A DNA stretch of 64,000 nucleotides from Methanobacteriota archaeon (GTDB lineage Archaea; Thermoplasmatota; Thermoplasmata; SG8-5; DAIRED01). The notes beneath the pieces were generated by a model, which did no database searches, was not told the origin of the DNA, and saw nothing but the letters and a program-made list of their open reading frames with translations. Numbering within the stretch: position 1 is the first letter of the stretch; every line of letters starts with the position of its first letter. The position numbers and the translations under genes are program-made. Below are positions 1,621-50,763 of the stretch, one piece after another. The stretch lies in NCBI GenBank assembly GCA_043799545.1, contig JAZDNO010000009.1, positions 1 through 64,000 on the forward strand, in the 5' to 3' direction.

Positions 1621-1874
1621 TTTGTATAGATGAGGGCGAGAATATGCTTGATTGTTCTTTTCTCGCCCTCACTTCGGTCTTGCTCCGCGCACTCTGCCCA
1701 GCAAGTCCTCGTTCAAATCTCATCTCCATAAAAAAATGAATGGGCCCTTTGTATAAATGAGGGCGAGAATATGCTTGATTGTTCTTTTCTCGCCCTCACT
1801 TCGGTCTTGCTCCGCACACTCTGCCCAGCAAGTCCTCGTTCAAATCTCATCTCCATAAAAAAATGAATGGGCCC
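1621..1874. repeat. Two tandem 127-bp units ending in the tRNA-Ile 3' terminus
   Basis: 1621-1747 vs 1748-1874 have 2 mismatches; each unit has a 12-bp hairpin TGAGGGCGAGAA/TTCTCGCCCTCA and an inverted tRNA T-arm copy GTTCAAATCTCATC. Confidence 0.95.
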
Positions 1875-1942
1875 GATGAGATTTGAACTCATGACCTCCC
1901 GGTTATCAGCCGGGCGCTCCAACCGAGCTAAGCTACGGGCCC
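1868..1942 (-). tRNA. tRNA-Ile (GAT), CCA not encoded
   Basis: Acceptor GGGCCCG/CGGGCCC plus discriminator A; anticodon arm CCCGG-CTGATAA-CCGGG; T-loop TTCAAAT. Confidence 0.97.
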
Positions 1943-2045
1943 TCCTGTCAATGGTTTTCGTTCACGGTCCCTTCGCTTAGCTCTAGCCTCGGTGAGGTTC
2001 GGTTAGTGGCTTTCTCACCTTCGGACCAAGCTAAGCTACGGGCCC
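1943..2045 (-). repeat. Duplicated tRNA-Ile 5' end (21 nt, 1 mismatch) embedded in a long hairpin
   Basis: 2025-2045 matches 1922-1942; GCTTAGCT/AGCTAAGC and GGTGAG/CTCACC pairings. Confidence 0.9.
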
Positions 2046-18438: not shown

Positions 18439-18632
18439 GCCGAGGTAGCTCGGGATGCGACCGGGGTCGCAGACCGCGCGGACGAGCTGGCCAGCGTGCG
18501 AGGAGCTCGTCCAGCGCCGAGGGTTGCAGCAGCAACCCGAGGGCTACCGAATAAAAGCGTTAAGAAGCCGAGGTAGCTTGCGAGGGCGAACGAATTCGCC
18601 GAGCAAAAACCTCGGCTAGCCGATAGCAAAGT
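18439..18632 (+). repeat. Two partial copies of the tRNA-Ser(GGA) 5' end within hairpins
   Basis: GCCGAGGTAGCT at 18439 and 18567 vs tRNA GCCGAGGTGGCT at 18633; REP-like GGACGAGCT..AGCTCGTCC at 18480-18512. Confidence 0.85.
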
Positions 18633-18741
18633 GCCGAGGTGGCTCAGCCCGGTAAGGCGCGAGCCTGGAATCTCCCGCTTCGGCGGGAGGCTGAGAGCTC
18701 GTGGGGGCAACCCCTCGGGAGTTCAAATCTCCCCCTCGGCG
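18633..18741 (+). tRNA. tRNA-Ser (GGA) with 25-nt intron (18671-18695)
   Basis: GCCGAGG/CCTCGGC plus G discriminator, CGAGC/GCTCG anticodon stem, long variable arm, intron at 37/38. Confidence 0.93.
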
Positions 18742-18765
18742 CTCATTTTATATTTATTCTGATAC

Positions 18766-18830
18766 GCGCCGAGGGGAGACTAAATCTTTGGTGGCATTTT
18801 GCGTTCATACGATTTAGTCTTGCCTTCGGT
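18766..18830. repeat. Inverted copy of tRNA-Ser 3' end plus AGACTAAATC/GATTTAGTCT hairpin
   Basis: GCGCCGAGGGGAGA complements TCTCCCCCTCGGCGC with one bulge; near-identical motif at 50595. Confidence 0.85.
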
Positions 18831-50151: not shown

Positions 50152-50245
50152 CGGTCGGAGGAGAGCCCCCAAAGTAAAAACCTTTTCCGTTGATATGCGT
50201 GGAAATTATTATTATGGCTCAGTAATATGCCATTGTCAGTCATGT

Positions 50246-50454
50246 GCCGAGGTAACTAAGCCCGGTTTACGCCTGACGAGCAAGCTCGTCCGCGCCTCGT
50301 GGCTTCGCCACTTCGGAGGTGCCAGCCTGGCACTAAAACCTTTTATATGCCTAGGTAACTAAGCCCGGTTTACGCTGGACGAGCTGCGCTCGTCCGCGCC
50401 TCGTGGCTTCGCCACTTCGGAGGTGCCAGCTACTGGCACTAAAACCTTTGATAC
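50246..50454 (+). repeat. Two tandem 103/106-bp units made of interrupted tRNA-Ser(TGA) 5' halves
   Basis: tRNA nt 1-24, then a 47/48-nt hairpin insert, then AGGTGCCAGC, then inverted TGGCAC. Confidence 0.95.
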
Positions 50455-50569
50455 GCCGAGGTAACTAAGCCCGGTTTAAGGTGCCAGCCTTGAGTGCGCC
50501 AGAAAAAGAACTGGTGCCTGGCGAGCTGGTGGTGTCATCACCTCGGGAGTTCGAATCTCCCCCTCGGCG
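50455..50569 (+). tRNA. tRNA-Ser (TGA) with 29-nt intron (50495-50523)
   Basis: GCCGAGG/CCTCGGC plus G discriminator, CCAGC/GCTGG anticodon stem, long variable arm, intron at 37/38. Confidence 0.93.
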
Positions 50570-50570
50570 C

Positions 50571-50704
50571 TACACTTTTTTATCGCTTTCAATCGCGCCG
50601 AGGGGAGACTAATCTTTGCTGGTAGTAAGTAATAACCGATTAATCTTACCCTCAGAGACACACCAAATCCACGTTGCTAGTCTCTTCGGTCTCCCCCTCG
50701 GCGC
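50571..50704. repeat. 134-bp segment bounded by a 15-bp direct repeat of the tRNA 3' end, with an internal inverted copy
   Basis: TCTCCCCCTCGGCGC at 50556-50570 and 50690-50704; GCGCCGAGGGGAGAC at 50595-50609. Confidence 0.9.
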
Positions 50705-50763
50705 ATCATGTTGCTTCTCCGTCAGCCGTTAATCTTTTATCCCCTCGCGGCGTAAGGGGAAAC

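Follow-up and report, generated by a model that had tools for sequence, protein, structure and literature searches.

Interrupted tRNA self-copies with a conserved two-hairpin module upstream of an archaeal tRNA-Ser(UGA) gene

A serine tRNA gene behind two interrupted copies of its own 5′ part

The window, that is, the whole stretch of 64,000 nucleotides analysed here, is contig C15 of a 2.06-Mb MAG (G000; 31 contigs, ~58% GC, 94% complete) from the archaeal order SG8-5 / Ca. Proteinoplasmatales (Thermoplasmatota), referred to below as the source genome. At 50455-50569 of its forward strand lies an intact, intron-bearing tRNA-Ser(UGA) gene, which is recognised by the Rfam tRNA model (40 bits, E 2.6e-6) and for which ARAGORN returned no call. 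Its 29-nt anticodon intron (50495-50523) has a canonical 7-4-7 bulge-helix-bulge (BHB) motif, as recovered by a BHB scan, and a run of six Ts just 3′ of the gene (50576-50581) likely represents, from its sequence and position, the terminator of the tRNA transcript. Housekeeping genes, encoding an FAD oxidase and a TPR protein, are the neighbours of the locus. The organism is an uncultured archaeon, and the serine tRNA gene behind the leader described in the following is essential.

Directly upstream of this gene, at 50246-50454 on the same strand, are two tandem leader units of 103 and 106 nt, whose tRNA copies stem from the gene itself. Tandem Repeats Finder reports the array at 50245-50478 (period 104, 2.2 copies, 91% matches, score 394) and a separate repeat search places it in equal register, bearing out the tandem of interrupted tRNA-Ser 5′ copies described in the original prediction; the idea that the units form a leader is supported, and the source of the copies, which the prediction had left unnamed, is the intact tRNA adjoining unit 2. 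Each unit begins with a copy of tRNA nt 1-24, at 50246-50269 in unit 1 (from sequence reading and repeat search) and, with one substitution, at 50349-50372 in unit 2. Since an exact match of 24 nt is not expected within 64 kb, this copy is not a product of chance. Both copies are split after nt 24, where the D-loop ends on its 3′ side, by an insert, as had been predicted for a single D-loop position. This insert, here called module M, measures 47 nt in unit 1 (50270-50316) and 48 nt in unit 2 (50373-50420) and comprises hairpin 1 (50270-50294 and 50373-50398, respectively) and hairpin 2 (50295-50316 and 50399-50420); the differences in stems and loops between the two units had been quoted correctly. 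The tRNA copy then resumes with nt 25-34 (50317-50326 and 50421-50430) and is followed by its own antisense, a 7-nt fold-back at 50327-50333 in unit 1 and a loop plus fold-back at 50431-50439 in unit 2 (a perfect 7-nt antisense of the nt 25-34 copy), so that a hairpin closes each unit. The last 15 nt are an AT-rich, BRE/TATA-like spacer, termed L (50334-50348 and 50440-50454). Scored with covariance model R1, introduced below, unit 1 (50246-50348) reaches 85.9 bits and unit 2 (50349-50454) 88.9 bits.

A BRE/TATA-type promoter block (50198-50219, forward strand) is located ~40 nt upstream of unit 1, and its motif and spacing match those of leaderless tRNA genes in the source genome. The TATA-like tract that had been proposed to fit a start at the first unit (50206-50215) lies inside this 22-nt block, which is 96% identical in a relative of the same genus (G001), where the surroundings are 56-61% identical. 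Given a spacing as in leaderless tRNA genes, the transcript is predicted to start ~10 nt before unit 1 and to run through both units into the tRNA. Spacer L carries a BRE/TATA motif identical to genuine tRNA promoters of the source genome, and it is found only ~8 nt before unit 2 and before tRNA-Ser(UGA), respectively, too near the tRNA for a full-length tRNA transcript to arise from there. By its position, a start directed by spacer L would fall at the 5′ edge of module M in unit 2 or inside the tRNA, and spacer L may instead be the start of separate module M transcripts. At about 15 other tRNAs with leader units in the source genome, a BRE/TATA-like motif is likewise found just 1-20 nt before the mature 5′ end.

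For archaeal RNase P RNA there is no match in the source assembly (94% complete), which is probably due to an assembly gap. A loss of this RNA in the lineage was considered and discarded, because 12 of the order's 22 genomes, G001 among them, contain it.

Self-copies around tRNA genes and the hosts of module M

With the first and last 14 nt of 41 tRNA matches in the source genome as probes, 5′-end copies were found upstream of nine tRNAs and downstream of none, and 3′-end copies downstream of 16 and upstream of none. Strong copies detected with 22-nt probes all lay 85-264 nt upstream or 67-206 nt downstream, and these probes found no kilobase-scale pair of tRNA and copy in the genome. Several tRNAs have, in addition, an antisense 3′ copy 17-24 nt downstream, and inspection of the flanks added Glu, Asp and Gln-type tRNAs to those preceded by leader units, here containing shorter copies. 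Of the four tyrosine integrase genes of the source genome, three adjoin tRNA genes (G000:C10:219117-219668, C12:73938-74411 and C25:2690-3220), indicating that ordinary tRNA-targeting integrative elements occur in this genome as well.

tRNA-Ser(UGA) is also followed by a trailer unit (50594-50708, forward strand), in which the 3′ end of the tRNA is repeated twice, first inverted and then, after a hairpin cassette, as a direct copy of 15 nt (50690-50704). This design recurs after tRNA-Ser(GGA) (18765-18830), where, as at tRNA-Ser(UGA), the trailer comes after a T-run, and at no fewer than 13 other tRNAs of the source genome, often as two tandem copies. Within the tRNA-Ser(GGA) locus (18439-18741, forward strand), the intron-bearing tRNA at 18633-18741 (Rfam tRNA, 39.4 bits) is preceded by two other leader units, each beginning with the first 12 nt of the tRNA; the first of these unit types reappears in the tRNA-Ser(UGA) leaders of G001 and of G002, a genome of another family. 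The tRNA-Ile locus (1711-2045, minus strand; tRNA at 1868-1942) has a 17-nt copy of the 5′ end upstream (2029-2045) and is followed by two trailer units in tandem. That the tRNA 3′ ends at 18713 and 50541 delimit a 32-kb element was considered and rejected, as 18633-18741 is a second Ser tRNA.

We searched 40 relatives for the insert at the DNA level and recovered it in G001, both at the syntenic locus and in front of tRNA-Ser(CGA), and in G002, both in front of tRNA-Ser(UGA) and at non-tRNA sites; covariance model R1 was then built from eight copies. A covariance search, as proposed in the original prediction, yielded 36 copies of module M, which are spread over 14 of 22 genomes from the order SG8-5 / Ca. 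Proteinoplasmatales at 2-5 copies per genome; 133 genomes from the same class but other orders contained none at E ≤ 1e-5. Of the 36 copies, some 19 reside inside a copy of a tRNA 5′ part, invariably where the D-loop ends on its 3′ side, and the intact cognate tRNA follows 26-174 nt downstream on the same strand. Their hosts are Ser, Thr, Ile and Lys tRNAs; longer variants, recognised by eye, precede Thr(CGU), Thr(UGU), Asn and Arg tRNAs in the source genome. Self-copy leaders with module M are thus found at Ser, Thr, Ile, Lys, Asn and Arg tRNAs, and the insert is not confined to tRNA-Ser, as had been assumed, being shared by the leaders of six or more tRNA families and by a further non-coding RNA. 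Among the genomes of one genus, several have module M 1-2 nt before the mature 5′ end of tRNA-Thr, and the remaining copies occur in the second non-coding RNA and in a repeated element of genome G014. The orientation of module M is that of the host transcript in at least ten independent host genes and in all cases but one, a reversed copy in G002 (G002:C64; L045:1576-1649, minus strand) that lies 8 nt after a forward copy.

The second non-coding RNA repeats the arrangement seen at tRNAs, in that a truncated, module-bearing copy of its 5′ part is followed by a complete copy. It belongs to an unannotated family of ~80 nt (G000:C17, about 270-560, L057; other loci L055, L054, L045, L190, L137, L152 and L138) for which Rfam gave no match. 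Its members contain a pair of pyrimidine tracts with identical sequence and a single purine tract that is mirror-symmetric; by their sequence, these tracts could form an ENE-like U.A-U triple helix. A linkage to a gene for an Sm-like (LSM) protein located 3′ in the source genome was dropped, since it is not conserved in seven other loci.

A further arrangement is found in genome G015 (G015:C164, L033). There, a complete tRNA-Ser(UGA) on the minus strand (834-715) contains a different insert, of 33 nt, at the equal D-loop position; two more leader units lie upstream of it, and a second partial copy downstream (552-426) has module M between a degenerate 5′ end and tRNA nt 22-76. A pattern scan of IMG/VR viral contigs gave five matches, none of which is module M, and the same holds for bacterial pattern matches in genome contigs, all of them below 29 bits.

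The feature at the tRNA-Ser(UGA) locus is real, non-random and conserved, and the locus is one of an order-wide set of structured self-copies around tRNA genes, for which we found no counterpart in the literature searched.

Structure and conservation of module M

The anatomy of module M is defined by the 36 aligned copies. Two hairpins abut without a linker at a fixed junction. Hairpin 1 has a 3-bp foot (CRC/GYG), a bulged U and a stem of 7-19 bp that is free in sequence, while hairpin 2 consists of a 2-bp foot (YC/GR), a 2-by-3 pyrimidine internal loop and a stem of 5-8 bp, with UUC as the usual apex loop. Where the two stacked helices join, the module's 5′ and 3′ ends come together, and its shape is therefore that of a dumbbell. 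In the alignment, which was fitted to the model, 97.1% of the cells are paired, compared to 76.8% in shuffles, and all 19 modelled pairs have changed on both sides, with 131 such cells; none of 500 shuffles reached the observed values for pairing or covariation, and structures slid by 1-3 columns gave only 23-41%. The two pairs closing hairpin 2 covary as CC/GG, UC/GA and UU/AA. By the evidence of these substitutions, selection keeps two perfect helices and the fixed junction of module M and leaves the helix sequences free. Module M thereby displays, in a model-fitted alignment, what is looked for in a structured RNA, namely a conserved secondary structure with covariation in several lineages.

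Some structural candidates did not survive this analysis. An outer helix between CCG of the D-loop and CGG at the 3′ end of the insert, used in model R1, was abandoned, because the 3′ GR of module M covaries with the YC following hairpin 1. A K-turn in the internal loop of the reverse strand is contradicted by two required positions that covary as Watson-Crick pairs, and a hammerhead composed of CUGA and a hairpin in unit 1 by the absence of CUGA from unit 2 and from the relatives. An Rfam search of 3 kb around the locus and of the relatives' loci (E ≤ 1) gave no credible match besides tRNA; two matches, neither overlapping module M, were far below threshold (22-23 bits, compared to gathering scores of 68-82).

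Alignment of the leader with its orthologue in G001 allows drifting segments to be told apart from conserved ones. Identity amounts to 68% in the upstream coding region, 56-61% in the spacers and 96% (23 of 24 positions) in the promoter block (50197-50220). In the units, the copy of tRNA nt 1-15 is only 60% identical, whereas the D-loop part adjoining module M is identical throughout (100%), as is the fold-back hairpin (100%); module M itself shows 91% identity, with two of its four changes forming one compensatory pair, and the AT-rich spacer L 81%. The values of 91-100% for the module block, as opposed to 56-61% for the spacers and 60% for the nt 1-15 copy, indicate selection on the block from the D-loop to the spacer, and not on a mimic of the acceptor. 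On this comparison, the acceptor-end copy drifts at a neutral rate and the module block is under purifying selection. The copy of nt 25-34 and its antisense partner track the substitutions of their own tRNA in the source genome, in G001 and in G002, and both the syntenic locus in G001 and the locus in G002 retain module M with compensatory changes in the stems. The number and order of leader units vary among the three genomes. The suggestion that the stems are kept by compensatory change hence holds for the two units and, above all, for the relatives, which is the opposite of the neutral decay that the prediction had named as an outcome speaking against it.

Evidence on the strand, and on the molecule, in which this structure is formed points both ways. 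The stems of the 36 copies contain 23 A.C and 25 G.U mismatches, while the tRNA stems of the source genome, for comparison, contain 18 G.U and no A.C in 480 pairs. With A.C as common as G.U, the stems of module M are unlike ordinary sense-strand RNA helices, which counts against a sense-RNA reading. One A.C is conserved throughout one sub-family of the module, and the reverse strand folds better in 31 of the 36 copies (by 2.2 kcal/mol on average); on that strand, the apex loops read GNA and are closed by C-G, and the internal loop is rich in purines. The orientation tied to the host argues for RNA, or at least for a transcription-coupled role, while the parity of A.C and G.U, the conserved A.C and the better fold of the reverse strand point the other way, or to DNA.

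Possible origin and function of the leader units, and comparison with known systems

The explanation to which we give most credence, at just short of an even chance, is that the units form a selected, co-transcribed leader domain, which would be removed by RNase P and would have been doubled by unequal recombination. The whole leader would be transcribed together with the tRNA from the conserved promoter at 50198-50219, module M would be cis-acting at the RNA level and offer a protein or nuclease a point of attachment in processing or turnover of the leader, and RNase P would free the tRNA at 50455. The two units would have arisen from unequal recombination between the 24-nt repeats. In a wider and more doubtful proposal, which we put forward as a possibility, module M may be a new archaeal signal for RNA processing or recognition, a dumbbell junction comparable in role to the bulge-helix-bulge that would mark the primary transcripts of tRNAs and of the second non-coding RNA; leaders and trailers might then not be debris but a system maintained throughout the order, serving to control the maturation of tRNAs or to protect their genes.

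Among the alternatives, an origin from mobile elements with an integration site in the 5′ part of tRNA genes, the units being scars or miniature cassettes of these elements and the 24-nt copy the att core, appears unlikely to us, even though much in the layout invites it. Module, fold-back and spacer would be remains of the element, and the tandem would result from two integrations or from one followed by duplication. The order copy, cargo, copy and rest of the tRNA is the product expected of a single crossover within nt 1-24, the variable number and order of units would fit, and so would the tRNA-adjoining integrase genes noted above. A tRNA-end copy beside an intact gene is also what archaeal integrative elements leave behind as att scars (attL/attR duplications; SSV-type, pNOB8-type; Thermococcaceae tRNA fragments, bioRxiv 10.1101/2022.07.05.498093). 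The closest published model, that of Sugahara et al. 2012 (PMC3293823), has the geometry seen here, with a 5′ tRNA fragment upstream of a reconstituted tRNA and an insert at position 24/25 of the D-arm that stems from a mobile element; in that model, however, the insert is borne by the working gene, while here it is borne by the fragment.

Further differences from att scars concern content, distance, number and decay. Recombinase genes and cargo are absent from the stretches that separate the copies from their tRNAs, and the direct repeats enclose only 79-82 nt of non-coding hairpin DNA in place of element genes or their remains; nor is there a module M near the integrase genes of the source genome, which are located elsewhere, or among the five viral matches. 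All tRNA-end copies of this genome are within 300 nt of their own tRNA, with strong upstream copies 85-264 nt away and not kilobases. More than 20 different tRNAs, and more than half of the genome's complement, are affected, at both ends and with strict polarity, which would call for equally many att specificities. Orthologous loci in different families retain module M with compensatory changes, while the first 15 nt of the supposed att core decay in G001, and the nt 25-34 copy, which lies beyond the module, follows the substitutions of each tRNA. The proposal in the original prediction that the units are footprints of repeated targeted insertion therefore fits poorly with the missing recombinases and cargo, with the short distances and with purifying selection on the module block.

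Module M might also be a palindrome acting at the DNA level, either a selfish hairpin or cruciform cassette or a mini-transposon related to IS200/IS605 or REP elements, which resides in highly transcribed RNA genes and whose RNA is a by-product; we consider this quite unlikely. It would account for a near-perfect Watson-Crick complementarity in which G.U and A.C are equally rare, for the conserved extrahelical T of hairpin 1 and for the GNA apex loops and purine-rich internal loop of the reverse strand. GNA loops closed by C-G are a very stable type of DNA mini-hairpin. As in bacterial REP/BIME systems with their RAYT (Y1) transposases, the palindromes are short, imperfect and subject to compensatory change, an inverted pair occurs in G002, and three Y1 transposase genes are present in the source genome. 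Yet the insert, labelled REP-like in the original prediction, is represented by only 2-5 copies per genome instead of hundreds, and these are so diverged within a genome that nothing points to recent transposition. No module M was found near Y1 transposase or integrase genes, and around the two Y1_Tnp genes tested, nothing scored above 6.4 bits with the module M model. A conserved 5′ target tetranucleotide is absent, as is the fixed target of IS200/IS605 elements, the 5′ flanks differing except for a loose GG 2-5 nt upstream; the feet of the hairpins coincide with the ends of the element, unlike the set-back, sub-terminal hairpins of IS200/IS605. Instead, module M is embedded in RNA genes at a point that is homologous in tRNA structure and not in sequence, and its orientation follows the host transcript. 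A casposon-like origin finds no better support, with a leader repeat of 24 nt and not 14-15 bp, no terminal inverted repeats seen in the trailer unit and no match to Cas1 in the source genome (94% complete).

We deem it improbable that each unit is a small-RNA gene of its own, with spacer L as promoter, the 24-nt copy as spacer between promoter and start, and a start at the 5′ edge of module M. The product could be a mimic or decoy of the tRNA, while transcription of the opposite strand could give a guide-like RNA whose arms are complementary to the tRNA. The BRE/TATA motif that spacer L shares with bona fide tRNA promoters of the source genome speaks for such genes, as does the distance of spacer L in unit 2, from which a start 2-3 nt before module M is predicted, and the fold-back hairpin, together with a run of four Ts, could terminate the transcript; in G001, moreover, spacer L is 81% conserved and lies at normal promoter distance from the next unit. 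This spacing, however, fits at the tRNA-Ser(UGA) locus only: in leaders of Thr, Asn and Ile tRNAs, 10-20 nt separate the motif from the gene that follows. The first units and the module M of the second RNA are at least 60 nt away from any promoter, and the spacer L of G002 is not TATA-like.

A derivation of the units, as pseudogene relics, from an ancestor of the tRNA gene with an intron, module M being the fossil of that non-canonical intron in the D-loop, is suggested by the complete tRNA-Ser(UGA) of G015 with its different 33-nt insert and by the likeness to Thermoproteales, where intron families place related inserts at one position in many tRNAs, but must be regarded as highly improbable, as no BHB can be drawn at the module boundaries by a scan that recovers the canonical intron of the same gene, no complete tRNA with module M was found among 36 genomic and nine metagenomic copies, and the module is under selection in truncated copies that cannot become tRNAs. 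The resemblance to non-canonical introns and to split or permuted genes of archaea extends to a foreign segment at a fixed position of the tRNA structure, to related segments common to different tRNAs and to the introns borne by tRNAs of this lineage. Unlike in BHB introns, though, neither a BHB nor a relaxed BHB is formed at the boundaries of module M, whose ends abut at the base of stacked hairpins, and the host copy is truncated, with the intact gene 3′ of it. Scanning at 50269/50270 and 50316/50317 returned no motif supported by covariation, the sole weak candidate conflicting with the covariation-supported hairpin 2, and candidates elsewhere in the leader were weak (3-5 bp) and at chance level. 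A complete, module-bearing RNA gene that would require splicing was not found, all tRNA-associated copies of module M being located in truncated 5′ copies.

tRNA genes are usually viewed as compact units, and to our knowledge, mobile-element integration is the one cause so far recognised when part of a tRNA is duplicated next to a gene. In the source genome, more than half of all tRNA genes have polar, structured copies of themselves, and one insert module is selected across an archaeal order. Should module M be an RNA signal, it would be a new element in archaeal tRNA processing; should it be a DNA element, it would represent a new kind of palindromic cassette, which targets RNA genes at a site defined by structure. 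Either way, these loci, which are missed or mislabelled by standard tRNA finders, provide a testable system for the interruption, duplication and splitting of archaeal tRNA genes.

For the leader domain that we favour, close known counterparts are the ordinary 5′ leaders of pre-tRNAs, which are removed by RNase P and typically comprise a few to a few tens of nucleotides. Like these, the units lie between a promoter and the mature 5′ end of the tRNA, in an order of archaea that has RNase P RNA; unlike these, they extend over 209 nt and are built of copies of the tRNA itself and of a module that is conserved across families.
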